From contig CP064982.1 in the NCBI GenBank assembly GCA_016699595.1, forward strand, positions 443,829 to 507,828: a stretch of DNA of 64,000 nucleotides, written 5' to 3'. Source of the stretch: a bacterium (GTDB lineage: Bacteria > Patescibacteriota > Dojkabacteria > GCA-016699595). A program made the translations under genes and the position numbers. This document shows positions 11,470-64,000 of the stretch, one piece after another; positions within the stretch are counted from its first letter, which is position 1; each line of letters opens with the position of its first letter. Below the pieces are notes generated by a model. That model searched no databases, was not told the DNA's origin, and worked only from the letters and a program-made list of their open reading frames with translations.

Positions 11470-11919
11470 GGGCGCGAAAGGATTTCGACAGAAGTACTGA
11501 TCCAAAAATCTCATGCAGTGTTTTACCATTATTGACACTTCAAAATAAATTTGGTAGTGATTTTCACTAGCATACATAAATGCAAACATCAAAACACAAT
11601 TTGCTCAATTTGCAAAAAATGTAAAAAGTGCCCTATATTATAGTGGCTTACTAAATTTTGCATAATAATTGAGCGAAGAAATGCCATGCATTTCCATAGA
11701 ATTAATTCCTTGATGGTGGAGAATTGATCTATGTTTCAAAAACACCATATGTAATATCTCTGTTTTTTATATGCTCAGAGGTACAAAACTATGAAGCATA
11801 TACTATTTGAAATACTTTTATAGATTGACATTCAAATAGAAACTAAATCTATAAAAGCATGTTATAAAGATTTAGGAAACGACTTTTGGAAGCGAGTTCG
11901 AATCTCGCCGCGTCCACCA
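11470..11919 (+). ncRNA. ssrA: transfer-messenger RNA (tmRNA, ssrA), not present in the ORF track
   Basis: The 3' end ggaagcgagttcgaatctcgccgcgtccacca aligns position-by-position with the E. coli tmRNA 3' end (GGACGCGGGUUCAACUCCCGCCAGCUCCACCA): T-arm, acceptor strand and encoded CCA. The 5' end gggcgcgaaaggatttcgacag pairs with that 3' strand across 7 bp, including a G3:U70 wobble, and contains the conserved GGAUUCGAC-like motif. An internal reading frame (11582-11668) ends in TAA TAA. Confidence 0.6.
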
Positions 11920-44067: not shown

Positions 44068-44073
44068 AATAAT

Positions 44074-45855
44074 ATGTCACAAACTACTCTAAAAATTCAC
44101 GGTCAATCTGGACAAGGAATTGAAACTCTTGGAATGATTTTGGCAAATTCTCTTCTGAAAAGTGGTTATTTTGTTTTTACACATAGAGAATACCCAAGTC
44201 TGATCAAGGGAGGCAATGCCAATTTTCAAATTGAGTTTGGAGATAAAGAAATCACTTCACCTCATGACAAGGTAAATATTTCCTTAGTTCTAAATAAACT
44301 TCAAACATTGTGGAAGCTTGATGAACTTGCAAAAAATGCTATTTTAATAACCGATGTTTCAACTCAAAAATTAACTGAAGCTGAAAATCAAATTATCAAA
44401 AATAAAAATGTAAATCAAATTTATATAAATACAGAACAAATTATAGCTGAAGCTCAAGCTGAAATTATTATGAAAAATATAGTTTTACTTGGGACTATAG
44501 CTCAAATAATTGGACTTGATCTAGAAGTAGTAAAAGATGTAATTTCAACTGAACTTGGTAATCACTCAGAAAAACTTGAGATGAATTTCAAATTACTTGA
44601 ACTTGGGTTTAATTATAATTTGGAAAACAAATTCAATTTTCCAACCTTAAAATTAAATGATAAAGTCGAAAATAATTCTAATAAAGCTTTGATGACAGGA
44701 CATGAAGCTTTATGTTTAGGTGCAATTTCAGCTGGTTTAAAGTTTTTCTTTGGTTACCCTATGACTCCAGCTTCAAATATTTTGAAATACTTGACTGAGA
44801 ATGCGAAAAAGTTTGATATATATGCTCGTCAAGTCGAAGATGAAATATCAGCAATAACGATGAGTTTAGGTTCATCATTAGGAGGAGTTAGGTCAATGAC
44901 TGCAACTTCTGGTGGTGGATATGATCTGATGACTGAGCAAATTTCATATGCTGGAATTTCTGAAACTCCAATTGTTGTAGTTTTAGGTCAAAGACCCGGA
45001 CCATCAACAGGTATGCCAACTTGGACTGCGCAAGGTGATCTGAATTTAGCAATTTACGGAGGACATGGAGAATTTCCGAAACTTGTTATGTCGCTTTCAG
45101 ATCCTTACACAGCTCACGAGCAAATTCAAAATGCTTTTAATTTTGCCGACAAGTATCAACTTCCTGTTATAGTTTTAACTGATAAATTTCTTGCTGAAAG
45201 TAATTTCACTGTAGATCCAACAAAATTCAAACAAATTGCAATTGATAGAAACTTAATAAGTTTGGATGATGTTACTTCCTTGGAGAAGCTACCGGAAGAG
45301 GAGAAAAGGTTTAGCGAAAAAAGATATGAATTTACTGCTTCTGGAATTTCTCCAAGATGGCTTCCTGGAACTTCAAGTTTTGACTATGATATCAATAGTG
45401 ATGAACATGATGAGTTTGGGAATGTAACTGAAGATGCAGACATAGCAAGTAGGATGTATGAAAAAAGAATGCGAAAATTGGTGAGCTTGAAACAAGAATT
45501 ACCTGAACCTGAGATTTTCACAAATCAAACTTTTGATGCACAAACAAATTTGGACAATTTGCAAAGTTATATATCATGGGGTTCAACGAAGTGCAATTTG
45601 CAAACTCATTTACAAAATTTAGATGACAAGAATATTCCAGCTCAATTTTTACACTTTGAGTATTTATGGCCACTCAAGACTGAAAAATTAATTAGGTTTC
45701 TAAATAAATATAAGGATGCAATAGTTGTTGAAAATAACTACGAAGGACAATTCGCAAATTTGATCCAAAAAGAAACTGGAATAATGATTGTTAATAGAAT
45801 TAATAATTGGAATGGTAGAAATATAAACTTCAATCAAAATGTCAAAGATCAGTGA
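44074..45855 (+). CDS. 2-oxoacid:ferredoxin oxidoreductase, fused gamma-alpha subunit
   Basis: Has the N-terminal gamma-domain pattern (KIHGQSGQGIETLGMILANSLLKSGYFVF) followed by the alpha domain (...GHEALCLGAISAGLKFFFGYPMTPASNI...). Confidence 0.85.
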   Translation: MSQTTLKIHGQSGQGIETLGMILANSLLKSGYFVFTHREYPSLIKGGNANFQIEFGDKEITSPHDKVNISLVLNKLQTLWKLDELAKNAILITDVSTQKLTEAENQIIKNKNVNQIYINTEQIIAEAQAEIIMKNIVLLGTIAQIIGLDLEVVKDVISTELGNHSEKLEMNFKLLELGFNYNLENKFNFPTLKLNDKVENNSNKALMTGHEALCLGAISAGLKFFFGYPMTPASNILKYLTENAKKFDIYARQVEDEISAITMSLGSSLGGVRSMTATSGGGYDLMTEQISYAGISETPIVVVLGQRPGPSTGMPTWTAQGDLNLAIYGGHGEFPKLVMSLSDPYTAHEQIQNAFNFADKYQLPVIVLTDKFLAESNFTVDPTKFKQIAIDRNLISLDDVTSLEKLPEEEKRFSEKRYEFTASGISPRWLPGTSSFDYDINSDEHDEFGNVTEDADIASRMYEKRMRKLVSLKQELPEPEIFTNQTFDAQTNLDNLQSYISWGSTKCNLQTHLQNLDDKNIPAQFLHFEYLWPLKTEKLIRFLNKYKDAIVVENNYEGQFANLIQKETGIMIVNRINNWNGRNINFNQNVKDQ

Positions 45856-46615
45856 TTATTATTCAAAAAACTTACCTACTTGGTGTGGAGGTTGTGGGAA
45901 TTATGGCATAATGTCAGCTGTTAAACTTGCACTAGTTGATTTGCAAATTGAATCTAAAGACTTATGCTATTGTTTTGATATTGGCTGCAATGGAAACATG
46001 AGCGACAAGATCAAAGGTTATAGATTTCATGGACTTCATGGACGAGTTTTGCCACTTGCAACAGGTTTGAAACTGTCTCAACCAAATTTGACAGTTCTAG
46101 CTTCAGGTGGAGACGGAGGAACTTATTCTGAAGGCATAAATCATTTTATACATTCTATCCGACATAATTATCCAATCACATTTTTAGTTCACGATAATCA
46201 TGATTATGGTCTGACAACCGGTCAATGTTCTGCAACTAGTCCAGATGGATTTAAGATGAATAGTAGTCCGGAAGGTCAACTTGGAGAAGTATTGAATCCT
46301 CTGAAACTTGCTATGTCAGTGAATGCAACATTTGTTGCTCAAACTAGTTCAAGTAATATCGAACAAATGAGAAAAGTTATCAAACTTGGAATTGAGCATC
46401 AGCATAAGAATAATGGTTTTGCATTTATAAACATCATTCAAGCATGTCCAACTTACAACAAGTATGGAATGGAAGAATTTATAAAAGGTAATTTATTTGA
46501 TGTAGATGAAGGAAATTCTAATGGTATAATTCATAATCCTAATGATTATCAAAGTGCGATTGATATAGTTGAAAAATACAGATACCCACTTGGCCTAATT
46601 TATCAAAGAATGTAG
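45839..46615 (+). CDS. 2-oxoacid:ferredoxin oxidoreductase beta subunit (TPP-binding)
   Basis: Has WCGGCGNYGIM ... GGDGG... thiamine-diphosphate-binding motifs. It overlaps the upstream alpha gene by 17 nt. Confidence 0.85.
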   Translation: MSKISDYYSKNLPTWCGGCGNYGIMSAVKLALVDLQIESKDLCYCFDIGCNGNMSDKIKGYRFHGLHGRVLPLATGLKLSQPNLTVLASGGDGGTYSEGINHFIHSIRHNYPITFLVHDNHDYGLTTGQCSATSPDGFKMNSSPEGQLGEVLNPLKLAMSVNATFVAQTSSSNIEQMRKVIKLGIEHQHKNNGFAFINIIQACPTYNKYGMEEFIKGNLFDVDEGNSNGIIHNPNDYQSAIDIVEKYRYPLGLIYQRM

Positions 46616-47347: not shown

Positions 47348-49723
47348 CTACATTCTTCCTCTTCCCTGTATCTCTTGATCAACTGCATTTCTATCCCTTC
47401 CATACCTGAGTCTTGACAACTCTTTGATATTTCTAAATGTCCTTTCATTGACTGGGTACTCTGTTCCAGCTATTATTGTTGGCTTTACTGAATCATAGAA
47501 TGTGCTCATTGAAAATGGCGGAGGATATTCACCGTTTACGAGAAGTTTGATATAAGCATTGAAGTTTTCTAAGTTTATCAAGTCGTTCTGTGAAAATATA
47601 GGTGCGAATTCATTTTGCAAATAACTTGCATCTTCAACTCCAACTTTGAATGACAGCATAGTACCAACATTACCAAATACAGCATGTTTGATTTTCTCAT
47701 CAATTTGGGCTATATATTGATTCCCTATAATCAGATTTAATCTATATTTTCTTGCTTCAGACAATATTTGGGCAAATTCTTCAGAAGCAAAATTTTGAAA
47801 CTCATCAACATAAAGATAAAAATCCTTTCTGTCACTTTCATTCATATCAGCTCTACTCATAGCAGCAGACAATATCTTTGGAATCAATAACAATCCCAAA
47901 AATTGTGCATTTTCTTCACCAACTAAACCTTTTGATAAATTTACAATTAAAATTTTCTGTTCATCCATTACTTTTCTAAAGTCAAACGAAGATACTGATT
48001 GACCGAGTATATTTCTCATCATCCTATTCGTGATAAATCTATCAAACTTAGAAATAATGTAACCTAAAACTTCAGATTTATGAAATTCATTTGTTTGAGC
48101 AATTTCTTTTTCCCAATACTCTCTAACTAGCGGATCTTGAATATATGGCAAGTACATTTTTTTCAAAAATTGATAGTCATATAAAATTCTTGCAACTTCA
48201 ACCAATGTACCTCCAGGTCTTGACATAACTGTAAGTAATGCATTTCGAACTGATCTTTCAAGTCTAGGTCCAACTATACCTTGCTTGTTTGGGTCAAACA
48301 TTTTGTAAAGCAAACCGATAAATGAATTTGCAACACGATGTTTATCATCTTCAGAGTAAGCTTCTACGATATTGAATGCTAATGGTCTCTCAACATCAGC
48401 TGGATTGAAATAAATGACATCTTCAGCCCTCTCAGATGGAATTCTTTCAAGTACCCATTCTGCAGCATCTCCATGAGGATCGAGATACGCAATGCCGTGC
48501 CCCTGTTTGATATCTTGAATAATCATTGATTGCATAGCATATGATTTCCCAGCTCCAGTTTTTCCAACCATGTACATATGCCTCCTTCTATCATCAGGTG
48601 CAATCCAAACTTGTTTTTTTGAACCTCGAAAAATTGAATTTCCAAGCCAAACACCTGGTGGTCCAGAAGGCACCTCTTCTGATGCAGGTGCTCTTTTACT
48701 TAACAGCCAATGTATATAAGGTGTTTGCACATTCTTGTTTGGAAAGTGAAATACTGTTGCTAGTTCTTCAGTATTTAGAGTAGTTGTTTGTCTTGGATTT
48801 CTATAAATAAAATCTTCTTCAAATTGTTTTTTTTGCTTTTCGTTTTTAAATTTAACCTTTTTGAATCTATTGGAACCTTGAAGTTCCATAGGATCAAACG
48901 AGGCAAGTACATTTTCTACATGCATTTTTGCGACTTCAATAGTTTTTGAAGCTGCTACAACCCTGATATCTACCAAGAAACCTACTTTTAGAGTTTTCTT
49001 CTCAACGCTACCTACTGATTCATCATCTCTAGGTTTTGACTTCTTTCCCTCTTCGGAACTGCCTGAATCTCGTACAGATTTGATAAATGATCTCCCTGCC
49101 TTTCGCCATTTTTTACTAGCTGGGGTTATCAAAATTTGCACTGCAACACCTTCACCTTCATTCATCCGACTCATAGCAGTTGTTACAGCTGACATAGTAT
49201 CCACATGCAATTCAGAAAATACCTTTATAGGTTTATACGAAACTTCAGCAAGCTTCAAGCCTGCATATTCAACCACTGAATCTTCATGAAATATATTGTA
49301 TTCATCTACTTCTTTCACATCTGCCTCCTGGTAGCTTGCATGTATTTGTTTTTCAACCAGTTGGGAAATTTTTTTGGGAACTATGACATAAAATCTTATA
49401 GACTCAGGAAGTCCCACTATCTCAAAAGAAACATAGTTTGGAGTTTTGAATAATTTTTCGTGCCACTTCGTAGGAACGGACGAAATAGATGTAAGTGCAG
49501 CAAACATCTGTTCTGCAGCGTGTACATCAACATCATTCGCTTTTGGTAACCTAACTTCATAACAAACACTATTCAAAGCTCTTTTCAATTGTTGTTCTTC
49601 TCTTCGTCTTCGTGCAAACATCATAAATAATCCTATCCCAATAGCTACAAGCAAAGTAAGTAATATCAATAAAACTAAGTATAATATGGCAGATGAATTT
49701 GAAGTTGATGATACTGTTGTCAT
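47348..49723 (-). CDS. membrane-anchored P-loop ATPase of the TraD/VirD4 (T4CP)/FtsK-HerA superfamily
   Basis: Has one N-terminal TM and a ~350-aa linker. Walker A is MYMVGKTGAGKSYAM, followed by YLDPHGDAAE (the DPxG[DE] block typical of T4CP/FtsK). A ~245-aa insertion precedes Walker B LYVDEFQNF (the spacing is T4CP-like, consistent with an all-alpha domain), and an Arg-rich C-terminus follows. A VirB4-like alternative is not excluded. Confidence 0.6.
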   Translation of the reverse strand: MTTVSSTSNSSAILYLVLLILLTLLVAIGIGLFMMFARRRREEQQLKRALNSVCYEVRLPKANDVDVHAAEQMFAALTSISSVPTKWHEKLFKTPNYVSFEIVGLPESIRFYVIVPKKISQLVEKQIHASYQEADVKEVDEYNIFHEDSVVEYAGLKLAEVSYKPIKVFSELHVDTMSAVTTAMSRMNEGEGVAVQILITPASKKWRKAGRSFIKSVRDSGSSEEGKKSKPRDDESVGSVEKKTLKVGFLVDIRVVAASKTIEVAKMHVENVLASFDPMELQGSNRFKKVKFKNEKQKKQFEEDFIYRNPRQTTTLNTEELATVFHFPNKNVQTPYIHWLLSKRAPASEEVPSGPPGVWLGNSIFRGSKKQVWIAPDDRRRHMYMVGKTGAGKSYAMQSMIIQDIKQGHGIAYLDPHGDAAEWVLERIPSERAEDVIYFNPADVERPLAFNIVEAYSEDDKHRVANSFIGLLYKMFDPNKQGIVGPRLERSVRNALLTVMSRPGGTLVEVARILYDYQFLKKMYLPYIQDPLVREYWEKEIAQTNEFHKSEVLGYIISKFDRFITNRMMRNILGQSVSSFDFRKVMDEQKILIVNLSKGLVGEENAQFLGLLLIPKILSAAMSRADMNESDRKDFYLYVDEFQNFASEEFAQILSEARKYRLNLIIGNQYIAQIDEKIKHAVFGNVGTMLSFKVGVEDASYLQNEFAPIFSQNDLINLENFNAYIKLLVNGEYPPPFSMSTFYDSVKPTIIAGTEYPVNERTFRNIKELSRLRYGRDRNAVDQEIQGRGRM

Positions 49724-50127: not shown

Positions 50128-52632
50128 TTATAAATTTATCTCTTTCACAATTATCTCTATATTAGCAAAATTTGTTGGAAGTTTCTGCAAAAACTTTGGA
50201 AGAAACTTTGGTTGGATGGTTGCTGAAACTATCTGCATTTTGTCATTTGACAAAGTCATAACTTCGCTCTGACTCTTACCCGATATAGATTTTTTTAGTT
50301 CAAGTGACGAAAACTCTGGTAAGGTTGAGGCGTTTATATGCAAAGAGAATATTATATTGTCAGCATTTACCCTGATATTATCGAATGAATAGTCAAACCT
50401 TTCAGTAATTTCCTGAGTATACTCTGAGACTCCATTACCCGTCAATTCTTTCTTTTTAACTTGGTATAGTTCTTTTGCTTTTGCCTCTATTGTCCCCTTA
50501 TCCAGTCCCTTAACTATCCCTTTGATTGTCACAGTAGCTGAAACTTCCTCTGCTTGTGCCCCAATTTGTGTAGAATATTCTTCTTTAACTATAGTATATT
50601 CCGGTTCTTGAGAAAGAAGAATAAAGCTATCTTTTGTCTTTGTTGTCAATTCACTTTTGATTTCTTCTTTAAGTTTATTCGATAGCTTTGAATTTAATTC
50701 ATCTTTTTCTTTTTGCGAAAAAATTAAGACCATATTTGTCTTCCCACCTGCTATATTGTTTGAAAAATTTGCAACAAGTTCGTCTGCGCTATAGTTAGCA
50801 ACTTTGCCTGTAGTATAAGTTGTACCAGTTATATTGTAATCCTCTCCAGATACAGTAGCAGTTATTGGTATCTGTGCTAGTAAACCATACACTGTGCCAG
50901 TGATTTGCTGAGTAGCATTAGGAACTACTCCACCTTTTGAAGCCTCATATTCAAGTGTCTTACCTCCTGCAGTTATAATTACTTTATAATTTTGTGGTAA
51001 AGTTATAGGGTTCGGTGTTTTATTGTATATATTGATAAATCCAGTAGCTTTAGAACCATTATCAACTTTGTTTGTAATTGTAACATTGTCAGAAGATGTT
51101 TTCTCAATCTCAACAGGTACAATGGCTAGACCTCCATTTTGATCTGTAGTCTTAGCTTCAATATCTTGAATAATCTCAATTTTGATAGGTTTCGGTTCAA
51201 TAGTAACTTGAGCTGTTCTAAGAGAATAAATCAACAAAACCAAAATAGGGAACAGAAGAATAATCGGCATCAAAATCATTATCTTTTTACCACGGAACAG
51301 CCCATCTGCTTTACCAAAAAAGTCAAGTATACTTTTCTGTAAATTCTGCAGAACAAACTTAAGTTTAGGAAATAATACGTCCATTAATCTCTTACCTAGA
51401 TATTTATTTGATTGAATTGAACGACTAGTTTTCTCTCCCTTGATACCTTTCATGTACACTCTATCATTAAATATACTAGCTCGTTTTTTCTTTATAGAAA
51501 CACCTTTTGCAATATTTACCTCTAGAGCTTTAGCTCTACCCTTTACCTCGTGGGGAAACTTTACCTTGCTTAAAAAATGTTTTAGAGAGTTTCTCTCAAC
51601 TTTAGAATATATTGGACCTATCTCTTGATCTACTGAATCTAAATTAGGGTTAACCCAATTTATTTCGCTTTGATTATTTATGTCATTAATTATATCTTCT
51701 GAAGGATTTTTTTTTTGGAGAATTGAAGCTTCCTCTATGCCATCTTCAATAATTTTACCTGAGACTTCATCGAATTCAGCAACATCACCACCAGCAACTA
51801 AAATGAAATTCTCATCTATAATCAGTTTTCCTCTTCGTAATTTTGGTGCTGTGTTTGGGGTGGTCTCACTGTCTTTCTGAGCTTTATAAGTATTGTACAA
51901 TTCCTCAAATGTAGGTTGCTTTTGTACTTCATCTTCTAATGATTCCTCAACAGTACTAATTAGAATACTTTCATCACTATTTACAGTTTTTATTGAGTTT
52001 CTAGCACTTTCAGATGAAGTATCTTCGAGAGTTTCAGGTTTGTCGTCATTTTGATTTTCAATTAGTAAGTTCAAAGTATTTTCTTCGTAATCAACTTTTG
52101 CATCAGCATCTTTAAGATTCTCTAGATAATCTTCATCTTTACTAGCGCTGATTAAACTTTCTTCGAGATTATCTTGAGAAATGTCTACACTCTCATTAGG
52201 ATCAACGTCAAAAATTTCAGTTTTTTCTGATTCTACAATGGCAGCATTTTGACTTGCAATTTGCCTTAAAGATAATAACTTCCTTTTCGTGTTATCCATT
52301 CTTCGAGTAAAACTTTCTTTCAAATCATCTGCTATTTGCCACTTTTGACTATCAGCCTGCCCAGAATCTTGTATTACTACCAAACTCACCTGCTTTCCTA
52401 GTTTTTCAGCTTCTTTGTCTTTTGTTTGAATTATGACAATTTTGTTTAGCCTTAGAATTTCCTTTGCAAGGATTCTCAAACTTACAATATTTGTAAATAC
52501 CTCTGAACCACTTGGAACAACTAGCAGAACTTTTTCACTACTAGTCTCCAGTATACTTTCAATGATAAAAGTCATCTCATCATCTACATCTAGAAAAATT
52601 TTTGTTATGTTTTGATTAGAAATCTTTGACAC
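50128..52632 (-). CDS. hypothetical 834-aa bitopic membrane protein (acidic cytoplasmic N-domain, central TM, Thr/Gly/Asn-rich extracytoplasmic C-domain)
   Basis: Has a single strong TM (KIMILMPIILLFPILVLLIYSL at ~aa 455-478). The N-terminal 90 aa look like an alpha/beta module (KVLLVVPSGSEV...). No recognisable enzyme motif. It lies immediately downstream of the FtsA homologue. Confidence 0.5.
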   Translation of the reverse strand: MSKISNQNITKIFLDVDDEMTFIIESILETSSEKVLLVVPSGSEVFTNIVSLRILAKEILRLNKIVIIQTKDKEAEKLGKQVSLVVIQDSGQADSQKWQIADDLKESFTRRMDNTKRKLLSLRQIASQNAAIVESEKTEIFDVDPNESVDISQDNLEESLISASKDEDYLENLKDADAKVDYEENTLNLLIENQNDDKPETLEDTSSESARNSIKTVNSDESILISTVEESLEDEVQKQPTFEELYNTYKAQKDSETTPNTAPKLRRGKLIIDENFILVAGGDVAEFDEVSGKIIEDGIEEASILQKKNPSEDIINDINNQSEINWVNPNLDSVDQEIGPIYSKVERNSLKHFLSKVKFPHEVKGRAKALEVNIAKGVSIKKKRASIFNDRVYMKGIKGEKTSRSIQSNKYLGKRLMDVLFPKLKFVLQNLQKSILDFFGKADGLFRGKKIMILMPIILLFPILVLLIYSLRTAQVTIEPKPIKIEIIQDIEAKTTDQNGGLAIVPVEIEKTSSDNVTITNKVDNGSKATGFINIYNKTPNPITLPQNYKVIITAGGKTLEYEASKGGVVPNATQQITGTVYGLLAQIPITATVSGEDYNITGTTYTTGKVANYSADELVANFSNNIAGGKTNMVLIFSQKEKDELNSKLSNKLKEEIKSELTTKTKDSFILLSQEPEYTIVKEEYSTQIGAQAEEVSATVTIKGIVKGLDKGTIEAKAKELYQVKKKELTGNGVSEYTQEITERFDYSFDNIRVNADNIIFSLHINASTLPEFSSLELKKSISGKSQSEVMTLSNDKMQIVSATIQPKFLPKFLQKLPTNFANIEIIVKEINL

Positions 52633-52657: not shown

Positions 52658-53890
52658 TTAATTTAGGAGACTTTCAAGTGCTATTGCAGAAACACTTACA
52701 TCATCAATATCTGTAAGCAGATTCATTTCATCAACCAAATTTCTCAAATCTCTAGGATAAATAAGTTCTGGCTCCGGAAATTTCTCAAAAGGCAAATAGT
52801 TTAGCCAAGCAAAAGTTCTTATACTTTCTTGAATTTGAGATAACTTTGCACCTCCACCTGAAAGAAAAATTCTCGTAGGATACGTTTCTACTTCATCCAT
52901 ATCAGATAATGACACTTGAATCCCAGAAACTAAAACCCTAGCATCTTTTTCAAAAGCTCTTTGAATCATTTGCTTATCATTTAGTTTTATGACATCAGTT
53001 TTTGGATCTTCAGACATTCTAATTTTTATTTTTTCAGCCTTCAAATAATCAATATTTAATAATTTTTGCACCCTGTGTGTAAATGCTCTTCCTCCTAAAG
53101 CAAACATTTTTACTCCAACAAAGCTACCATTCGAAACCATAGCAACATCAGTAGTACCTGCACCTATATCAGCAAAAACTCCCGAGAATCGCTCTCTTTC
53201 CGAACCTGAATAGTTATTTGCAATTGCAAATGGCACAACAGTAATTTTGGCTATTGAAAGGCCAAGATACTCTGCAATCGTTCTGATACTTTGGATATGC
53301 TGATCTTGTGTGAACGAAAAGAAAATTTTAAATGAAACACTTTTTCCTTTGAAACCAACTAAATCACTAACTCTAAGTCCATTTATATAACAATCTTTCC
53401 TAGTAGATGAAACTTCAACTATTTCTGCATGTGAGATACCATGTTTTTTACCAATTTCGACTTTTATGCTATCACTTGTCTCCTCTCTTAGCTTGGACTC
53501 AATATCGTGAAGTTCCTCTTCAGTAATGATCTGCTCTGGCATTTCTCTTTCATAGTTTGCATAAACAACTTCACCATTAACTATTTCTCCTGCTATTCCT
53601 AAATACAAACTTTCTGGATACTCTTTGGATTCTAGATTTTTGCATGCTTCTGCGATCGCTAAGTCACAATTTTCCTTGACATTTTGTATATTTGTAATCA
53701 TTCCACCCTTCATCGCACCAGCTTGTTGTCGAGATCTACCATAACCTACGGTATGTACTCTTCCATTTTCTTTGAAAAACACCAATGCTTTTACCCACTC
53801 GGTTCCAATATCAAGTGCCAAAACATTTCCCGATCTAGAATTTCTTCTTGGCTCAATATTTTGTTTTTTGAATTTATCGAAAATTGACAT
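52658..53890 (-). CDS. ftsA: actin-like ATPase, FtsA homologue (FtsA/PilM family)
   Basis: VLALDIGTEWVKALVF...GYGRSRQQAGAMKGGMITNIQNV parallels the FtsA N-terminus (LVVGLEIGTAKVAALVGE...GVGSCPSRGMDKGGVNDLESVV). GVFADIGAGTTDVAMVSNG...GGRAFT...AEKIKI parallels the FtsA phosphate-2/adenosine motifs. A 1C-like insertion is present. Confidence 0.7.
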   Translation of the reverse strand: MSIFDKFKKQNIEPRRNSRSGNVLALDIGTEWVKALVFFKENGRVHTVGYGRSRQQAGAMKGGMITNIQNVKENCDLAIAEACKNLESKEYPESLYLGIAGEIVNGEVVYANYEREMPEQIITEEELHDIESKLREETSDSIKVEIGKKHGISHAEIVEVSSTRKDCYINGLRVSDLVGFKGKSVSFKIFFSFTQDQHIQSIRTIAEYLGLSIAKITVVPFAIANNYSGSERERFSGVFADIGAGTTDVAMVSNGSFVGVKMFALGGRAFTHRVQKLLNIDYLKAEKIKIRMSEDPKTDVIKLNDKQMIQRAFEKDARVLVSGIQVSLSDMDEVETYPTRIFLSGGGAKLSQIQESIRTFAWLNYLPFEKFPEPELIYPRDLRNLVDEMNLLTDIDDVSVSAIALESLLN

Positions 53891-53899
53891 TAGAAAGAC

Positions 53900-54505
53900 T
53901 TATTTATTTACAACTGAATTCAAAGCATTTTGTTTTGCTTGTTCATAAAGTTCATTACCAATTATTTTCAAAGACTGTCGTATCATTACTTTATCTTTAT
54001 CACTTGCAATATTTTTATCTGTAGAATTTAAATAAGTGTTTGGAAAACTAAATTCTTTGATCTTCTGTGGATTTTTTTTGACATCAAATGTATTTGTTCC
54101 TAAGTATTCTGCATAAAATAAAGTATTTGAAAATGAACTTCCATTTACTTTTGGATTGTCTTTTTTATAACCATAACAACTAGCTATATAATAGTACTTT
54201 TCCAATCCTTTCATTGCTGCAGATTCATCAATACTGTAATCTATAACTCTCAAAGCACAACTATATTTGTCAGTTAACTCATTTGTTTTCAAATAATAAT
54301 TTTCTAAAGTATATTTCAACATTTCTATAGTTTGTGAATCAACTTGAGATCCTGAAACGTTGGAATTATAAAGTTTATATAGGTTTTTTGAATTTACTAA
54401 TGATGCATTAAATCCTAAACTTGTTACCAAAAAGAAAACATTACAACAACAAGATAATATTAGCAATACAGTTAAAATTATTATTAAAATACTTTTAGTG
54501 TTCAT
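53900..54505 (-). CDS. hypothetical bitopic membrane protein, CCC-motif family member 3
   Basis: Has an N-terminal TM with LILSCCCNVFF and a ~170-aa extracytoplasmic domain. It is directly upstream of ftsA on the same strand. Confidence 0.45.
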   Translation of the reverse strand: MNTKSILIIILTVLLILSCCCNVFFLVTSLGFNASLVNSKNLYKLYNSNVSGSQVDSQTIEMLKYTLENYYLKTNELTDKYSCALRVIDYSIDESAAMKGLEKYYYIASCYGYKKDNPKVNGSSFSNTLFYAEYLGTNTFDVKKNPQKIKEFSFPNTYLNSTDKNIASDKDKVMIRQSLKIIGNELYEQAKQNALNSVVNK

Positions 54506-54550: not shown

Positions 54551-55636
54551 TTACGAATAAACTCCAATATCTTCAGGTATAAACTGTCTGAAGTTTTGTG
54601 GAGAAATTTGTATACGATCAACTTTCTGCTCAACTATAATTCTTGCAACTTTCCTAGCAACATTTGTTAAATTTCTTTCAAGCTGCCTTATACCTGCGTC
54701 GAATCCAAGCGGCCTTATCATAAGTGGCCAAACATCATTTGTAAAAGTCATTTGATTTTCACTTAGTCCAGTAGCTTTCCGAATCTTTGGAAGCAAGTAG
54801 TTTTCTGCAATATTTGCCTTTTCAGCATCATTATAACTAGAGAATCGAATTATTTCCAAACGATCAAGTAAAGCAGCAGAAATCGTACCTAGTGTATTTG
54901 CAGTTGCTATGAACATTACATTTGACAAGTCAATTGGGTAATCTATATAAGCGTCCATATAAGTTCCATTTTGCTCAGGGTCAAGAATTTCAATCAAAGC
55001 TGCATTATAATCAAACCTCTCAACTTCATTTCCAGCAGTTTTATCCATTTCATCAAGCAAAATAATTGGATTCATAGTTCCAGCTCGTTGGAGTGCTTTT
55101 ATGATCTGTCCCGGTTCTGCTCCTGTTACATATCTTGGCATTCCCTTCAATCTTCCAATATTTCCAAGTGCATTGAGTGAAATTCTGACAAACTTTTTAT
55201 TCAAGGCTTCAGCTAATGATTTTGCCATGGTAGTTTTTCCAATACCTTGAACTCCAACAAAACATAAAATAGGTGCGTGAGAAGAATTTCCTGCAAGATT
55301 ACTCATATCTTCACTTGCTCGGCTAATCTTTCCACTTTGTAAATTCATAACAGCTACATATTCAGCAATTCTATTTTTGATTTCGTTTAATCCAAAATGA
55401 TTATGGTTGAGAATATCTATTGAATGATTGATTTCTAAATTATCCTTTGTGTAATTGCCAAAAGGAATTTGTAATATATTTTGGATATAATGTTCAACAA
55501 TATCAAATTCTGTTGAAAAATTACCAGCATCAGCCATGCGAGAAAGCCTATCAAGCATTTTGAGTGCCTTTTCCTTCAAACCAACTGGCATACTGGAATT
55601 CTCAACTTGTATTTTTAATGACTTTATTTCATCCAA
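54551..55636 (-). CDS. Lon-type AAA+ ATPase module, lacking both the Lon N-domain and the S16 protease domain
   Basis: It aligns across its length with Lon residues ~280-600. The matching blocks are KEKALKMLDRL (Lon KEKALKELDRL), HFGLNEIKNRIAEYVAV (HYGLEKVKERILEYLAV), PILCFVGVQGIGKTTMAKSLAEAL (Walker A), ILLDEMDK (Walker B), EILDPEQN, FIATAN and LLDRLEIIRFSSY. The ORF ends where the protease domain would begin. Confidence 0.7.
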   Translation of the reverse strand: MDEIKSLKIQVENSSMPVGLKEKALKMLDRLSRMADAGNFSTEFDIVEHYIQNILQIPFGNYTKDNLEINHSIDILNHNHFGLNEIKNRIAEYVAVMNLQSGKISRASEDMSNLAGNSSHAPILCFVGVQGIGKTTMAKSLAEALNKKFVRISLNALGNIGRLKGMPRYVTGAEPGQIIKALQRAGTMNPIILLDEMDKTAGNEVERFDYNAALIEILDPEQNGTYMDAYIDYPIDLSNVMFIATANTLGTISAALLDRLEIIRFSSYNDAEKANIAENYLLPKIRKATGLSENQMTFTNDVWPLMIRPLGFDAGIRQLERNLTNVARKVARIIVEQKVDRIQISPQNFRQFIPEDIGVYS

Positions 55637-58256: not shown

Positions 58257-59723
58257 TCAGAAGTTCACAACTATCTGCTTATCTATACTCATTGATTCAA
58301 TTGCATCCTTCATCCCTTGAACGCCTATTCCTGAATTCTTTGTGCCCGCAAAAGGGAAATTATCTGGACCTCTATCTGATTTTGCGTTGATTTGAATCGT
58401 TGAAGATTCAAGTTGATTTGCTATATAGAATGCTTCGTTTATATCTTGAGTGAAAACATCGCTTTGAAGTCCATACTCAGAAAGATTAGCTAACTTTATC
58501 GCTTGATCTATTGTTTCTACTTGAAAAACAGGTAATATAGGTGCAAATTGTTCTTCGTCAAAAATGCGAATTTCCTTTATCTTTTTTTCATCAAAGGTAG
58601 CAGATGAAAATAGAATATTCGGATAAATCAGATTCTTATCTCTTTTAAATGGGTTTATAAAATTCATTCCTTTTGATACTGCGTCATGAAACAGTTCCTC
58701 TGCATAATTTGCAGCAGAGGTTGAAATAAGTGGAGTTATAACTACATTCGTATCAAGTGGACTTCCAACCTTCAACTTATTCATCTCAATTTGTAGTAAA
58801 CTTAGAAAGACATCAAATATGTCCCCTTGTATAAGTACTTTCTTTACTGCAGTACATCTCTGACCAGAGTAACTAAATGCTCCCTTTACTATTTGTTGCA
58901 CTGATTTCTGAACATCTGCTTTTTTGGTCACAATCGCTACATCCTTACCACCAAGTTCCATTAGTGGCGTCTTGAAACCAACCTTGCGTTGAGAACTTTC
59001 TGCTAAAACAGAATAAATATGTTTTCCTACTTCTGTAGAACCAGTAAAGTTCACCATATCCACATTTTCATTTTGTACTAGTAAATCACCAATTTCAGCG
59101 CCCTTCCCAGTTATAAAATTCAGAGAACCTGTTGGGAGGTTTTTCGAGAATATCTCTGCAAGTATATAGGCAACCAGACTACCTTGTGTTGCTGGTTTGA
59201 AAACAACTGTATTTCCTGCAAGAAGTGCAGGAACAATTTTCGAAACTGATAAGTTTATAGGGTAATTGAATGGTGATATACAAAGAACTACACCTATAGG
59301 AACTTTTGTTACTATTGAAACTTTTTGACTATGTTTATATCCTCGCATCATTCCAGAATCCAATACTCTACCTTCCATACTTTTTGCTATCTCACAAGAT
59401 GTATAAATAAATTCAGCAGATCTAACAACTTCATCAAGTGCAGAAGCGTATGGTTTTCCAACTTCATGACTAAGAAGTTTCGCAATTTCTTCTTTTCTTA
59501 AGATAAGTTCTTCAGCAACTCTTTTGATTAGCTCTGTCTTTTCATATGTAGAAACTTCACTCCAGATTTTGTACGCATCTCTAGCAGCAGTATACGCATC
59601 ATTAACTTGTAAGCCATTTGCAAGAGCAAATTCTCCCAATTCTGAATTATCAGATACAGAAAATACTTTTTGATACTTTTCAGTTTTGACTTTAATTGCA
59701 TTAATTATTAGATCGTTTTTCAT
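58257..59723 (-). CDS. gapN: NADP-dependent non-phosphorylating glyceraldehyde-3-phosphate dehydrogenase (GapN-type aldehyde dehydrogenase)
   Basis: It is near-collinear with Streptococcus GapN: ISPFNYPINLSVSKIVPALLAGN, FTGSTEVG, ELGGKD, catalytic YSGQRCTAVKKVLIQ and the C-terminal NFPFAGTKNSGIGVQG. Confidence 0.8.
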   Translation of the reverse strand: MKNDLIINAIKVKTEKYQKVFSVSDNSELGEFALANGLQVNDAYTAARDAYKIWSEVSTYEKTELIKRVAEELILRKEEIAKLLSHEVGKPYASALDEVVRSAEFIYTSCEIAKSMEGRVLDSGMMRGYKHSQKVSIVTKVPIGVVLCISPFNYPINLSVSKIVPALLAGNTVVFKPATQGSLVAYILAEIFSKNLPTGSLNFITGKGAEIGDLLVQNENVDMVNFTGSTEVGKHIYSVLAESSQRKVGFKTPLMELGGKDVAIVTKKADVQKSVQQIVKGAFSYSGQRCTAVKKVLIQGDIFDVFLSLLQIEMNKLKVGSPLDTNVVITPLISTSAANYAEELFHDAVSKGMNFINPFKRDKNLIYPNILFSSATFDEKKIKEIRIFDEEQFAPILPVFQVETIDQAIKLANLSEYGLQSDVFTQDINEAFYIANQLESSTIQINAKSDRGPDNFPFAGTKNSGIGVQGMKDAIESMSIDKQIVVNF

Positions 59724-59734
59724 GTTTAAATATG

Positions 59735-60178
59735 TTAATTTTTGTTTATACTTGTCGTTGAGGAAGATTCTCCAACTCCCATAAATATTGAATTATTACA
59801 ATTTGCATCACAATATACTCTCTTATAATTTTTTGGTAATTCATAATTATTATCAAGTAGCCAACCGTCAAGTTTCAGTATAATGTCAGATTCAGAAAGA
59901 TACAATGAATTGACAAATACAATCTTCTGACTATCATCAATTAAAATACTCATATCTTCATCATTATATATATTTTTTAGATCAGGCAAATCATCTATGC
60001 TAACTGTACTAGTAATTGAATTCGTCATATTAGAACCATTATTTGTTACCTTTTTATTTCTTGATACTAATAAGTTTATAGTAATTAACAAAGCACATAG
60101 GATAATTGCAAAAACAAATATCAAAATAGAATACTTCTTTGAGTTTTGAATTGAATTATTTGATAAATTTGTAGACAT
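59735..60178 (-). CDS. hypothetical membrane-anchored protein
   Basis: 147 aa with an N-terminal TM. It abuts the start of gapN. Confidence 0.35.
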   Translation of the reverse strand: MSTNLSNNSIQNSKKYSILIFVFAIILCALLITINLLVSRNKKVTNNGSNMTNSITSTVSIDDLPDLKNIYNDEDMSILIDDSQKIVFVNSLYLSESDIILKLDGWLLDNNYELPKNYKRVYCDANCNNSIFMGVGESSSTTSINKN

Positions 60179-63100
60179 TAATTTATAAAGTACTGTTTAA
60201 ATTTTGCAGAATTTTCAACAACCTTACGGCAATATGTGAAATACGTAGGATTATCAGGAGAACAACTCCCAAGGTAGCCTTCGGCAGCTTTCCAAATATC
60301 TCCATTTGTCCAGTTTGTACATTTATCTCCTTCTACTCCTCTGGCACTAGCTTTCTGTCTGATAATCAAGGTACTTCCACACATTCCATCTCCAAAATAG
60401 TACCTTTCAGATTGATTCGCTGACCTACTAGAATTGACTAATTGCAAGCAGTTTGAGAATAAAGTTGTACCTGCTACATCTGGCCAAGTATTAGAATTGA
60501 TTTGAAAAGGACCCCTCACATCACAATCACCCCTTCGTATACATTCAGCATTGTTATCTTTCATTAATATATCATCAGTGAAATTCCCAGTGGCCGAAAC
60601 AACTGGATGTGCACAATTTGATTCATTTTGCCAAATAGCCATAAGAAGCTCAGGTGGAATACATGCATTTCTTGAAGTATCTTTAACCAACTTTACAATT
60701 TCAGGTATTGCAAAAACGCCCTGACAATTTCTTGAGATATTACCATTCTCTATTTCAGGTACTTGAGATGCACTAGGTTTAATATTACATTTAAATGGAT
60801 TATATTCCAAATTATCTACCTTTTTTTTGTCATCTGACACATTGACATTCAAAAAACCTTCATCCACCATTTCTTTATATGTCAACATACCATTTCTACA
60901 TAAATACACACCCATTTGATCATACTTGTACATATTTTCATTTGAATTACTATCACACAAACACATGAAGTAATTATTCGTAGAAGAACATTTCTGTAGT
61001 AACATATTTTCATTTGAGTTCATATTGAATCCCACCATCGAAAGATGCTGATTTATCAAAGCTACAGTGCCAAGCCAAGGAAATTGTGCAGAGGTAATCT
61101 GATAGTCCATATTAGAACTTATAACTGGTCTTTTATATCCAGACAGCAAGCCATTGTTTGGATTTACGCATTGTGAATCTGAAGTTTTCCCAGTATTTAT
61201 AGATTCACTTTGACTAACTGAATATTTCCGTATATACAAACTTGCCTCAGTATGAACATTTTGATTTATACATATTCTATTTTGTCGCAGTAAAGAATCA
61301 GCAGAATTAACTTGATAAGATAATCCATTTGCATTTGATTTGTTTGAATATTCCAACCTTTTTGCCCATTCCCATGCAGTTCTCAGTACCCTAAGAAGTC
61401 CATCTGCCGAATCAATTGTAGGTGCACTACTCCAACTCCTAAGTAGAAAATGTCCGTGAGGAGGTTCGTTTTGATTTATAGATGCACTTTCTGTATAGCC
61501 CCAAAATGGAGCAGGATAATCGCCAGAAATCGTATAAAAATCATTATAGACATTGCTACTAGTCAAAACATTCCTTTCGATTTGTTTAAGTTTTGTGCTG
61601 GGATCTGCAATTCTAGGCTCATCTTTTCTGCAATAATTCACCAAACAAACCGGATTTAAAACTGATATTCTTTGTGTTGAATTTGTTGTTTCAATTACAG
61701 CTCCAGTTAATCTATTTTTTCTGACTGTTCTCACAACTGTCGATGGAAAGTTATCACATGCTACATTATAACTATATGTACTTGCATTATTAGGTTTGCT
61801 TTCATCGGTATTTTGCAATGTTACTTTAGCTGTTGGATCTCCCAAGTATTTATATCCGCCTTGATATGGTTTAAATAGATACGAGCAACTTACTTCATAT
61901 CCATAAGGTGTTGTGGTATTTTTACCTACCAGTTCAGTACTAATAGCATATTCATCACTCATTACTTCAGATGGTGTCAATTGAAACTTTGCGATCTCTT
62001 CCAATGTATAATCTTTGAGTTTGGAAACTACATTCTTTTTTATATCTTGATTTACTTTTACAACATAGTTTATACTGTCCTTACTTATATCATTGGCACT
62101 TGGTATTGATGAAAATGGAAATAAAAATTTACCATAATAACCCCTTAAAGATTTTAAAGCTTGGTTTGTAGCTCTAAATTCAGTGCCATTTTGTCCAATG
62201 TAATAATTTCTCAATGAACCACTGTAATAATTAGTTATTTTGAAAGAATCGGAGATTACATTTGGTTCAAAAACTACCCCAGATTCTTCAAGATAATCCA
62301 AGTAATCATAACCATATAGTTCCACTGCAGTACCAATTTGATATGGAATACTAGAACCGGTAGATAATTGAATGTTGGAATTAACCTTCCTTGTCATGTC
62401 AAAAGCTTCATCAGTATTCATTCGATTCACATAATTTCCATATTGTATGAAATCCAAATCTTCCGTACCCGCAGCACTTGTATTGACCAAGGATTGAGTC
62501 ATCGGCATATTCAACCTTGCTGTAGTAACTATATTTCCTGAATACAAAACATCTATCGGGGTATTTACCAAAGTTGTAACAACACATTCATTACCACTGC
62601 AGTAATTGCCGATTTCTATGTCTCCGTACTTCAATTCTTTATCAGGCAAGTCGTAATAGCCTAAATAAATATCTTCAGATGAGTTTTCAACATTCACAAC
62701 ATCTTGTGATAAATCTTTGAATTTCAGGCGTTCTACTTCTACGAAAGAACTTTGCCCTGAACTAGTTTTTAACAATTCGCCAGTTTCTATATTTGTTTTA
62801 GCTAGATTTTCATTTGAACATGAATACGTGTATTTATTGGCACAACCTGCAACTTCCATAAAATCATACATTTGTGATTCATACCAGTATGTCCAATCAT
62901 TATTGATACCTGTAGTTGGTTCAGCTATATCTCCATAAATGCATCCATAGTAGTTACTTGAAAGAGGGCTGACACGCAGAGAGTAGTACTTATTGGCATC
63001 TTTTACCTCACCTGTTTTGCTCAAAATTTCATTCTCTCCTATCTTCGTATCAAGAGGTAAGTTCATCGCTATGTAATATCTACATGCTCGCCAATGATCT

Positions 63101-63981
63101 TTATCCGACAAATCAGCAAGACCTAAATCTGTTATTTTACCCTTGATTCTTGGATATTCATTTGTATAAACATTCTCTAACCTAGTATTTGCATAGTATT
63201 GATCTCTATCATAAACCGACCTCTCGAGATCAGTAAGTTGAGCAAAGATTTTCCCAGAAGGTTCTTGGCCCCTAATTCTAGATTCACCCAAAGGAGCACC
63301 ATTGAAGAGTAGCACTGCCTCTATATATGGATTTGTCATAAGTTGGAGCAACATATCATATTCATACTTCTTTGCCCATTCATCTGTTGCAGCAGAATAA
63401 ATTGGCTTGTTATCGACAGGATCTAGCCCTGTTTCAAGGAAAAATAGCTTTCTATCATTAGCTTTTGCATACTCAAGAGCATCCCTCAATTGAGGTATCA
63501 TAGTATTACCTTCAGCATCAAAGACATACATATTTATTGCAATTCCGACCAATCCACCAAAATCTGCATTAGCATCTTTCATTTGATTGAGGTATTCAAT
63601 ATCAGCAAGCGACATCACGGGGCTTAGCAAATTTATATGTTTTCTATATTTGTAGTAATCTTCTATTCTCAATGATCCGCCACAGTTGTAATTGCCCTTA
63701 TTTATATCATCGTCTGAAGTATTCAATGCACACTGAAAGGCTCGCAGTGTTGACAGATGATATATAACTGAATTCATATATCTGGTAACTTTGCCAGCAT
63801 CAATTTCAGGTATATCTGTTGGTATATTTGGTTCGTTTGGACCAGCTATAGCCCAAACTGATATATCATATCCGTTTGATTTAGTTTTATTTTCCAGTTC
63901 AATTGCTAATTTTGCAAGTTTAATTGAATACTTCTCAGCTGCATTGGATATTTGTGATTCATTTCTAGCTAGTGGGGCCAA
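60178..63981 (-). CDS. large (1267 aa) multidomain cell-wall-active-like protein: N-terminal GH-A-like (TIM-barrel glycosidase) motifs and a C-terminal lysozyme-like/SLT-like domain
   Basis: The N-terminus has WAIAGPNEPNI (an NEP acid/base-like motif) and, ~135 aa later, LFFLETGLD (a TE-x-G nucleophile-like motif), as in clan GH-A. The C-terminus has ...AIWQNESN... and ...RGPFQINSNTW..., resembling the E...GLMQI pattern of lytic transglycosylases. The protein is Cys/Tyr/Asn-rich. The start is bounded by an in-frame TAG immediately upstream, and no signal peptide is evident. Confidence 0.6.
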   Translation of the reverse strand: MAPLARNESQISNAAEKYSIKLAKLAIELENKTKSNGYDISVWAIAGPNEPNIPTDIPEIDAGKVTRYMNSVIYHLSTLRAFQCALNTSDDDINKGNYNCGGSLRIEDYYKYRKHINLLSPVMSLADIEYLNQMKDANADFGGLVGIAINMYVFDAEGNTMIPQLRDALEYAKANDRKLFFLETGLDPVDNKPIYSAATDEWAKKYEYDMLLQLMTNPYIEAVLLFNGAPLGESRIRGQEPSGKIFAQLTDLERSVYDRDQYYANTRLENVYTNEYPRIKGKITDLGLADLSDKDHWRACRYYIAMNLPLDTKIGENEILSKTGEVKDANKYYSLRVSPLSSNYYGCIYGDIAEPTTGINNDWTYWYESQMYDFMEVAGCANKYTYSCSNENLAKTNIETGELLKTSSGQSSFVEVERLKFKDLSQDVVNVENSSEDIYLGYYDLPDKELKYGDIEIGNYCSGNECVVTTLVNTPIDVLYSGNIVTTARLNMPMTQSLVNTSAAGTEDLDFIQYGNYVNRMNTDEAFDMTRKVNSNIQLSTGSSIPYQIGTAVELYGYDYLDYLEESGVVFEPNVISDSFKITNYYSGSLRNYYIGQNGTEFRATNQALKSLRGYYGKFLFPFSSIPSANDISKDSINYVVKVNQDIKKNVVSKLKDYTLEEIAKFQLTPSEVMSDEYAISTELVGKNTTTPYGYEVSCSYLFKPYQGGYKYLGDPTAKVTLQNTDESKPNNASTYSYNVACDNFPSTVVRTVRKNRLTGAVIETTNSTQRISVLNPVCLVNYCRKDEPRIADPSTKLKQIERNVLTSSNVYNDFYTISGDYPAPFWGYTESASINQNEPPHGHFLLRSWSSAPTIDSADGLLRVLRTAWEWAKRLEYSNKSNANGLSYQVNSADSLLRQNRICINQNVHTEASLYIRKYSVSQSESINTGKTSDSQCVNPNNGLLSGYKRPVISSNMDYQITSAQFPWLGTVALINQHLSMVGFNMNSNENMLLQKCSSTNNYFMCLCDSNSNENMYKYDQMGVYLCRNGMLTYKEMVDEGFLNVNVSDDKKKVDNLEYNPFKCNIKPSASQVPEIENGNISRNCQGVFAIPEIVKLVKDTSRNACIPPELLMAIWQNESNCAHPVVSATGNFTDDILMKDNNAECIRRGDCDVRGPFQINSNTWPDVAGTTLFSNCLQLVNSSRSANQSERYYFGDGMCGSTLIIRQKASARGVEGDKCTNWTNGDIWKAAEGYLGSCSPDNPTYFTYCRKVVENSAKFKQYFIN

Positions 63982-64000
63982 AATATCACATGTTCTAATG

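Follow-up and report, generated by a model that had tools for sequence, protein, structure and literature searches.

A large, probably exported protein of a Dojkabacteria genome, truncated at the edge of the analysed sequence, with a predicted GH-A-type barrel and a probable lysozyme-like domain

What kind of protein is encoded at the far end of a 64,000-nucleotide stretch of a Dojkabacteria genome (Patescibacteriota; assembly GCA_016699595.1, contig CP064982.1, positions 443,829 to 507,828; hereafter "the window"), where a long minus-strand open reading frame (ORF) runs into the last nucleotides of the sequence? The original prediction, made from the nucleotide sequence, described a 1267-aa protein with glycosidase motifs at one end and a lysozyme-like domain at the other, and suggested a large effector that degrades cell walls, its own or those of a host, and is exported by a non-classical route. 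A large wall-degrading enzyme remains the best explanation of our results, but the non-classical export does not survive. With moderate confidence, we propose that the gene, which is truncated by the window, encodes a Sec-exported, multi-domain, glycan-cleaving enzyme of 1,395 residues. In this proposal, 1) an N-terminal signal sequence, cleavable or anchoring, would direct Sec export, 2) a barrel of the glycoside hydrolase (GH) clan GH-A type that keeps both catalytic Glu residues would act as a retaining beta-glycosidase, 3) a lineage-specific, Cys- and Tyr-rich scaffold of ~840 residues would connect the two modules and direct the enzyme to, or orient it at, the cell wall, 4) a divergent SLT/goose-lysozyme-like domain with a single catalytic Glu would cleave the MurNAc-GlcNAc bond of peptidoglycan, and 5) a small membrane partner would be coproduced as an anchor, chaperone or self-protection factor. 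Which glycan is cleaved, peptidoglycan or a different one of the wall, and whether the cell attacked is the bacterium itself or a host, we can only infer. Secreted multi-module wall hydrolases are a known kind of protein, but the family described here is itself unannotated.

The extent of the gene has to be settled first, and two segments describe it:

60178..64000, minus strand: 3' 3.8 kb of the big gene, codons 123-1395 of 1395 plus the TAA stop
beyond the window end, minus strand: first 122 codons of the big gene, signal sequence included (known from QQR93299.1)

The ORF predicted at 60178-63981 is on the minus strand and ends with a TAA stop at 60178-60180, as had been stated, but the start at 63981 is wrong. 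The frame is open from 63981 to 63999, the final complete codon of the window, where the translated window DNA reads ...IRTCDILAPLARNES...; the TTG at 63981 is a Leu codon inside the gene and not a start. The two TAGs within "ccactagctag" near 63981, which had been taken to delimit the start, are out of frame, and none is in frame. The ORF is real and the gene is truncated by the window edge, and it is because of this truncation that the protein had appeared to have 1267 residues, a TAG-delimited start and a hydrophilic N-terminus. The 1,273-aa window translation, to which the figure of 1267 aa has to be corrected, matches exactly residues 123-1395 of GenBank QQR93299.1 (P0009 below), a "hypothetical protein IPJ91_02460" of 1,395 aa encoded on a 761,814-bp contig of a metagenome-assembled genome; the bacterium is uncultured and has a small genome (~0.76 Mb, 32% GC). 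A 685-aa fragment, P0001, is 100% identical to the window protein, and the 90% cluster of P0001 includes QQR93299.1. In a second public assembly, the big gene is split into at least four ORFs (P0001, P0003, P0010 and P0011) on a single 5,763-bp Logan contig. These pieces agree at 100% identity with parts of QQR93299.1 and have short frameshifted tails at their ends. The splitting is probably due to assembly indels rather than to a pseudogene.

The 122 residues that are absent from the window change the view of how the protein leaves the cell. The real N-terminus of QQR93299.1, MSTRRISKIYLSIVSAMFAVVFIYVGILLSPKNDVIASS, consists of a basic n-region (RR/K), a hydrophobic core of ~19-21 residues with a mean Kyte-Doolittle value of 2.6, and a V-I-A↓SS site, and neither the reported hydrophilic N-terminus nor the reported absence of a signal peptide can be upheld. 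Hydrophobic N-termini followed by AXA-like sites (...VNA↓A, ...LNA↓Q, ...VDA↓Q) also occur in all six tabulated full-length homologues and in L009 and L010; the full-length P0009 and all of the full-length homologues combine a basic n-region, a hydrophobic core and an AXA-type site. A signal-type N-terminus in QQR93299.1 and in every full-length homologue makes classical Sec export the expected route, with a signal sequence that may be either cleavable or membrane-anchoring. The original prediction had also allowed for an upstream part that would provide a conventional signal peptide and at the same time identify the protein as an adhesin or a surface-layer protein. The signal peptide is present, but no such family was identified: models of SLH, S-layer, adhesin and carbohydrate-binding module (CBM) families in Pfam, NCBIfam and PHROGs match neither the window protein nor six homologues. 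A phage origin was considered and dropped, as PHROG matches were none. A more general lesson is that calls of "no signal peptide" are unreliable for ORFs that touch a window edge.

The next question is whether the N-terminal domain is a glycosidase. The relevant features are:

63307..63999, minus strand: in-window part of the predicted GH-A-like barrel, from after strand 3 through strand 8 (AlphaFold2 and Foldseek); strands 1-3 lie outside the window
63829..63837, minus strand: N-E-P with the candidate acid/base Glu, following predicted strand 4; HNEPN in 5/8 lineages
63427..63435, minus strand: E-T-G with the candidate nucleophile Glu, within predicted strand 7; ETG or ESG in 5/8 lineages

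Both motifs of the original prediction are present. The tripeptide NEP occurs twice in the protein and is, taken alone, not beyond chance expectation; the NEP and ETG motifs are meaningful because of their placement in a predicted barrel and their conservation within the family. An AlphaFold2 (AF2) model of residues 40-375 of P0009, built from a six-sequence family alignment, has a predicted template modelling (TM) score of 0.78 and a mean predicted local distance difference test (pLDDT) of 72.9, which rises to 85-95 over strands 4-7. It consists of eight alternating strand-helix units, i.e., a (beta/alpha)8 barrel, in which NEP (model residues 138-140) lies ~4-6 residues past strand 4 (131-134) and the Glu of ETG, Glu272, lies within strand 7 (267-274). 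Retaining glycosidases of clan GH-A, also referred to as the "4/7" clan, are distinguished by this arrangement, with one Glu after strand 4, in the sequence NEP, and another in strand 7, and the predicted model thus combines the TIM-barrel fold, the strand-4 acid/base Glu and the strand-7 nucleophile Glu of that clan. Foldseek comparison of the model with the PDB yielded 35 matches at E<=1e-3, nearly all of clan GH-A (GH53, GH26 lichenase and mannanase, GH5, GH1, GH51, GH128, PslG and GH30), with a GH53 galactanase at the top (E 5.7e-6, TM 0.51, probability 1.0) and sequence identities of 8-14%. The nearest solved enzymes are the GH53 endo-beta-1,4-galactanases (4BF7, 1HJS), a GH26 lichenase (2CIP) and a GH5_4 endoglucanase (6XSO). 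With these enzymes the domain shares the predicted barrel, the N-E-P after strand 4 and the Glu in strand 7; it differs from them in the low identity and the lack of any sequence match, in the fusion of the barrel to ~1,000 more residues, and in the loss of catalytic residues in some members of the family.

We consider a clan GH-A-type barrel, as originally predicted for this part of the protein, to be supported at the level of the fold. At the level of sequence the barrel appears to fall within no current family; searches of Pfam, NCBIfam and the PDB with the whole protein or with the isolated domain of six members returned no GH match, even at E=10. HNEPN and ETG or ESG are kept in five of the eight lineages (window, P0002/L010, P0005, L009). 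P0004, P0006/P0019 and P0007 have lost both the strand-7 Glu and the proline of NEP, as expected if the two form one active site, and P0007 also lacks the acid/base Glu. A barrel with both catalytic Glu residues, as modelled for the window protein, predicts a retaining beta-glycosidase mechanism. The substrates of the structural neighbours (galactan, glucan, mannan and Psl) give no specific indication of what the barrel itself would cleave.

At the other end of the protein, the following features are relevant to the proposed lysozyme-like activity:

60181..60723, minus strand: putative SLT/goose-lysozyme-like (GH23-type) domain, 181 aa (sub-threshold Pfam SLT, SLT_2 and PDB matches)
60622..60624, minus strand: candidate catalytic Glu (W-Q-N-E-S), invariant in 7/7 members, aligned with Glu73 of goose lysozyme, at the end of a predicted helix
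60502..60513, minus strand: G-P-F-Q, followed by I-N-S-N-T; G, Q and T are invariant in 7/7 members

The E...GPFQI pattern of the original prediction is present, with its Glu and GPFQ at these positions, and the lysozyme-like assignment of the C-terminal ~180 aa draws on matches that converge on SLT and goose-type lysozyme but are all sub-threshold. The last 181 aa of the window protein match Pfam SLT (PF01464) with E=0.045, SLT_2 (PF13406) matches three of four other members (best E=0.027), and no other family matched more than one member. When a profile of the family was compared with the PDB, the first two matches were the goose and black-swan lysozymes of family GH23; the best E-value, for a goose-type lysozyme, was 0.1 with five sequences in the profile, and with seven it was 0.021 for 153L and 0.027 for 1GBS. 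Both HMMER and hhalign align the catalytic Glu73 of goose lysozyme with the invariant Glu of the family, which lies in W-x-x-E-[ST]-x-C.

An alignment of seven members (A7) contains in all of them an invariant E, the pattern D-x-x-G-x-x-Q-x-x-x-x-T and the pattern A-x-x-Y-x-G, the invariant positions being E34, G71, Q74, T79, A147, Y150 and G152 together with five Cys. The third motif reads AYNG in P0005 only and A-x-x-Y-x-G in the other members. The motifs E-S, G-L-M-Q-I-x-x-x-T and A-Y-N-x-G are what we take to be SLT motifs I-III (PF01464), and the family motifs follow in the matching order. In A7 the Glu, the G-L-M-Q-like and the A-Y-N-x-G-like motifs thus have the order found in GH23/SLT proteins, and invariance of this kind would be typical of an active site under selection. 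An AF2 model of the middle and C-terminus (1,020 residues, seven sequences) has a pLDDT of 34.8, and only the region of the C-terminal domain reaches 50-72; there, at low confidence, the Glu is placed at the end of a helix that is followed by a hairpin and further helices. Foldseek comparison of this weak model with the PDB and BFVD returned nothing significant; lambda lysozyme and Pseudomonas Slt are at ranks 3 and 4 among its PDB matches, with a non-significant E of ~1.5.

Compared with the GH23 enzymes, here family 1 lytic transglycosylases (SLT PF01464, SLT_2 PF13406) and goose-type lysozyme (153L), the domain is alike in the Glu followed by Ser or Thr at a predicted helix end, in G-x-[FM]-Q-I-x-x-x-T, and in an A-Y-N-x-G-like motif, all in matching order; it is unlike them in the sub-threshold scores, in variable insertions of ~37 to >100 residues between the Glu and GxFQ, and in the five invariant Cys, which are foreign to canonical SLT domains. 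On balance, we regard the domain as probably lysozyme-like and of GH23 type, and we hold this view more firmly than the proposal for the protein as a whole. Such a module would be expected to act on peptidoglycan and is predicted to cut the MurNAc-GlcNAc bond, working either as a muramidase or as a lytic transglycosylase.

Between the two end domains lie ~840 residues, which are divided by conservation as follows:

62941..63240, minus strand: variable linker, P0009 residues 376-475, lowest column conservation (0.06-0.21 in a nine-sequence alignment)
61486..62940, minus strand: conserved middle region A, P0009 residues 476-960, conservation 0.3-0.57
60751..61443, minus strand: conserved middle region B, P0009 residues 975-1205, where conservation within the family is highest

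The conservation of regions A and B is comparable to that of the end domains. Region A includes the blocks EPTT..YESQ..AAGCSN and VLTT..VN.P.LRSL..GT.DL; region B includes LRILRTAWE, C.NP.N, PWLGT..AIN, C.C and IYLCQNGMLTYSE, with 18 invariant columns, six of them Cys, in the nine-sequence alignment (A8). Neither single-sequence nor profile searches of the middle found a match in Pfam, NCBIfam, PHROG or the PDB, and region B has none in the PDB or Pfam even at E=10. The AF2 model of this region, built from seven sequences, is unusable (pLDDT <50). The middle had been described as Cys/Tyr/Asn/Gly-rich and as possibly composed of carbohydrate-binding modules or beta-rich repeats. Relative to other long ORFs of the window, the protein is enriched in Cys (4x), Tyr (2x) and Asn (1.5x), but not in Gly; carbohydrate-binding families, like all others, went unmatched, and the idea of internal repeats was dropped, as none were detected in the protein. 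From its conservation, a structural, targeting or wall-binding function of the middle seems plausible.

Several observations weigh against a glycan-cleaving enzyme, and we collect them here. No domain reaches a curated family threshold (for SLT, 13.8 bits compared with the Pfam gathering score of 21.3), and by sequence no GH family matches the N-terminal domain. The barrel model was built on only 6 sequences and reaches a TM of ~0.5 to known enzymes; since its catalytic residues are lost in 3 members, the barrel may bind rather than cleave glycans in part of the family. The hhalign comparison with goose lysozyme has a probability of 42% over 33 columns, the C-terminal structure model is of low confidence with a non-significant fold search, two-thirds of the protein are without assignable function, and the dacA/nagZ neighbourhood described below is not conserved beside the homologues.

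Some of these observations would be explained if the protein were a non-catalytic surface protein, either an adhesin or a wall-binding scaffold, in which degenerate barrel and lysozyme-like modules bind glycans. Consistent with this, the barrel nucleophile Glu is absent in 3/8 lineages and the acid/base Glu also in one, the unassigned middle region exceeds the other parts of the family in both size and conservation, and no enzyme family threshold is reached; against it, NEP and ETG or ESG are retained in the window protein and in four further lineages, the Glu, G..Q and A..Y.G of the lysozyme-like domain are invariant in 7/7 members, and searches detected no family of the adhesin, S-layer, SLH, LysM or CBM type. 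Because all three candidate catalytic Glu residues, Glu178, Glu311 and Glu1248 in the numbering of QQR93299.1, are retained in the window copy, a purely adhesive role is less likely for it, and we consider this explanation improbable.

How widespread is the family, and do its relatives support a role at the cell wall? When 1.84 billion cluster representatives were searched exhaustively with HMMER, just eight related clusters were found, and family alignments used against GTDB genomes and JGI metagenomes yielded only duplicates and two further lineages, one of which is a record of uncultured Candidatus Saccharibacteria. Single-protein scans of genome and metagenome contigs found no homologues; a word-seeded homologue search likewise found nothing with the single protein or with a profile of the C-terminal domain, and with the full-family profile it found only the 685-aa P0001, apparently because low-complexity words crowd its candidate list. 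The family is very small and modular. P0005 (locus L004, 10001-15052) has an extra N-terminal SGNH/GDSL-like esterase domain at residues ~60-215, which matches Lipase_GDSL_2 with E=0.0014 over its full length and contains the motifs GDS, GTNG and D-x-x-H. In other bacteria, such enzymes remove O-acetyl groups from peptidoglycan before lytic transglycosylases act on it, and by analogy the domain of P0005 may be linked to such a reaction. P0006/P0019 and P0007 have other N-terminal extensions and, in place of the SLT-like domain, an unrelated domain of ~235 aa (P0006/P0019 ~1297-1529 and P0007 ~1720-1956; loci L007 and L008) with the motifs FDFDLEW, INDGIGSC and WGGMDF. The lineages in which the ~235-aa domain occurs are without the barrel nucleophile Glu. 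Searches of Pfam and the PDB found no match for this domain; its assignment as a GH25 muramidase on the basis of a D-x-E motif had no support in Pfam or the PDB, and nothing supported an RlpA/3D-like domain in the N-terminal extension of P0019.

Directly downstream of the big gene, and in the same orientation, there are two genes that extend the picture:

59735..60178, minus strand: 147-aa gene, N-terminal transmembrane helix in the product, ATG overlapping the TAA of the big gene (TAATG)
58257..59723, minus strand: aldehyde dehydrogenase gene, the third gene of the run (Pfam Aldedh, E 8.5e-128)

A gene of 141-167 aa follows the big gene directly in every lineage in which downstream DNA was read, and the eight aligned copies (A6) all begin with a hydrophobic stretch of transmembrane type. 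Judged from the TAATG overlap, the big gene and the small membrane-anchored protein are apparently translationally coupled in the window. The small genes have no Pfam match where they were annotated or scanned, and the window copy matches no known immunity or inhibitor family. The other copies align mutually; the window copy scores 12 bits against their profile, which is non-significant, and a claim of homology was dropped in view of this score and heavy composition bias. The 147-aa protein is equivalent to the other copies in position and architecture only. The order of big gene, small gene and aldehyde dehydrogenase gene is common to four lineages (the window, L001, L007 and L008). The original prediction had placed the big gene beside gapN, dacA and nagZ-like genes. 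The window neighbours do include an S11 DD-carboxypeptidase (dacA) and a signal-bearing GH3 N-acetylhexosaminidase-like (nagZ) protein, but the supposed gapN can be called only an aldehyde dehydrogenase: in NCBIfam it comes closest to lactaldehyde dehydrogenase, every match falls far short of the equivalog cut-offs, and gapN is not singled out. The neighbourhoods of the homologues contain housekeeping genes (MurB, ClpP, aminoacyl-tRNA synthetases, PBP1, Mur ligase). The GDSL-like domain of P0005 and the GH3 and S11 neighbours in the window constitute a wall-related context that we count in favour of a wall-cleaving enzyme.

The same context has to be weighed under a different assumption, namely that the protein is a housekeeping autolysin of like architecture that remodels or recycles the bacterium's own peptidoglycan in growth and division, with the small membrane protein as its regulator or anchor. 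This explanation differs from the one that we propose solely in the target, self or host, and the gene content around the locus is compatible with it: the gene is single-copy (there is no paralogue in the window and the source genome gives one cluster), housekeeping genes surround it in all lineages, and the window has a NagZ-like GH3 protein, an S11 DD-peptidase and an FtsA-like protein nearby. NagZ-type enzymes process the products of lytic transglycosylases, which likewise counts for an autolysin. On the other hand, a length of 1,400-1,950 aa and swapped end domains would be unusual features in a lytic transglycosylase with a housekeeping role, and the homologues do not share the dacA/nagZ neighbourhood. 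While attack on the host envelope has been proposed for surface lytic transglycosylases of Patescibacteria (PMC11665869), the housekeeping synteny and the single copy fit self-remodelling equally well. We regard the autolysin as a possible, clearly less likely, alternative to the enzyme as proposed above.

Large, exported proteins that combine an N-terminal anchor or signal with an SLT-type and a second wall-degrading module are also known from type IV secretion systems (T4SS), where PrgK and TraG(pIP501) are VirB1-like proteins with SLT and CHAP/LytM modules (PMC12102498). The protein described here resembles them in these respects and differs in that its second module is a predicted GH-A-type barrel rather than a peptidase, in the absence of a T4SS gene context, and in the 840-aa middle, which has no counterpart. 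Could it nevertheless be the VirB1-like hydrolase that pierces the wall for a patescibacterial T4SS? VirB1 proteins of monoderm bacteria are large and multi-domain with an SLT domain, other glycosidases may fill the VirB1 role in Patescibacteria (PMC12102498), and positions 47348-49723, at a distance of ~10 kb, encode a VirD4/TrwB-like coupling protein; yet there are no virB4, virB6 or pilin genes among the scanned ORFs of the window or in the annotated neighbourhoods of five homologues. Most patescibacterial genes for type IV coupling proteins are located far from virB4 and lone copies are common (PMC12102498), which also weighs against this explanation. We consider it very improbable, and a T4SS context was dropped, as the scanned ORFs of the window include no virB4 and only the lone VirD4-like gene.

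If the preferred reading of a wall-cleaving enzyme is correct, what would it mean for the biology of these bacteria? How ultrasmall epibiotic bacteria pass through the walls of their hosts is an open question, for which secreted lytic enzymes are the lead candidates, few of them defined. Surface lytic transglycosylases of Patescibacteria have been proposed to breach the host envelope (PMC11665869). The protein is like these in the type of organism, the predicted secretion and the probable lysozyme-like domain; unlike that proposal, which is generic, the family described here is unannotated and confined to ~8 sequence clusters. It is invisible to current annotation, being recorded as a "hypothetical protein" with no match in Pfam or NCBIfam; current family models cover neither of its recognisable modules, and the partner is new, as are two-thirds of the protein. 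The most far-reaching version would be an undescribed, lineage-restricted machine with which epibiotic Patescibacteria breach host walls for nutrient uptake, and which would comprise the founding member of a new GH-A family, a new targeting domain of ~600-840 residues, an exchangeable C-terminal lytic module (SLT-like or the 235-aa domain) and an obligatory small membrane partner to guard or dock it; we think this version unlikely, and less so than the VirB1-like and adhesive roles discussed above. If the activities were confirmed, the result would be a new clan GH-A family, a divergent lysozyme-like branch, and a gene pair that is testable in cultivated Patescibacteria; if not, one more orphan surface protein.

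The window contains several other loci that deserve a short description. The 361-aa product of an ORF at 54551-55636 (minus strand) combines a Lon-type AAA+ module with a Lon lid domain but has no S16 protease domain, and the gene next to it (53900-54505) encodes a 201-aa membrane protein with no Pfam match. The ORF at 50128-52632 (minus strand), of 834 aa, is likewise unmatched in Pfam and contains a hydrophobic segment in the middle of the protein; directly upstream of it, at 52658-53890 (minus strand), a divergent FtsA/PilM-like actin-fold protein is encoded. The lone VirD4/TrwB-like type IV coupling protein (47348-49723, minus strand) has an N-terminal membrane segment. At greater distance, a tmRNA gene at 11470-11919 (plus strand) has the predicted tag peptide ANIKTQFAQFAKNVKSALYYSGLLNFA, which is unusually long for a tmRNA tag. 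Finally, the region 41824-46615 (plus strand), as read by eye, contains a 747-aa ORF resembling ADP-forming acetyl-CoA synthetase, followed by two ORFs for subunits of a 2-oxoacid:ferredoxin oxidoreductase, which together would form a fermentative energy module of the kind typical of small-genome uncultured bacteria.

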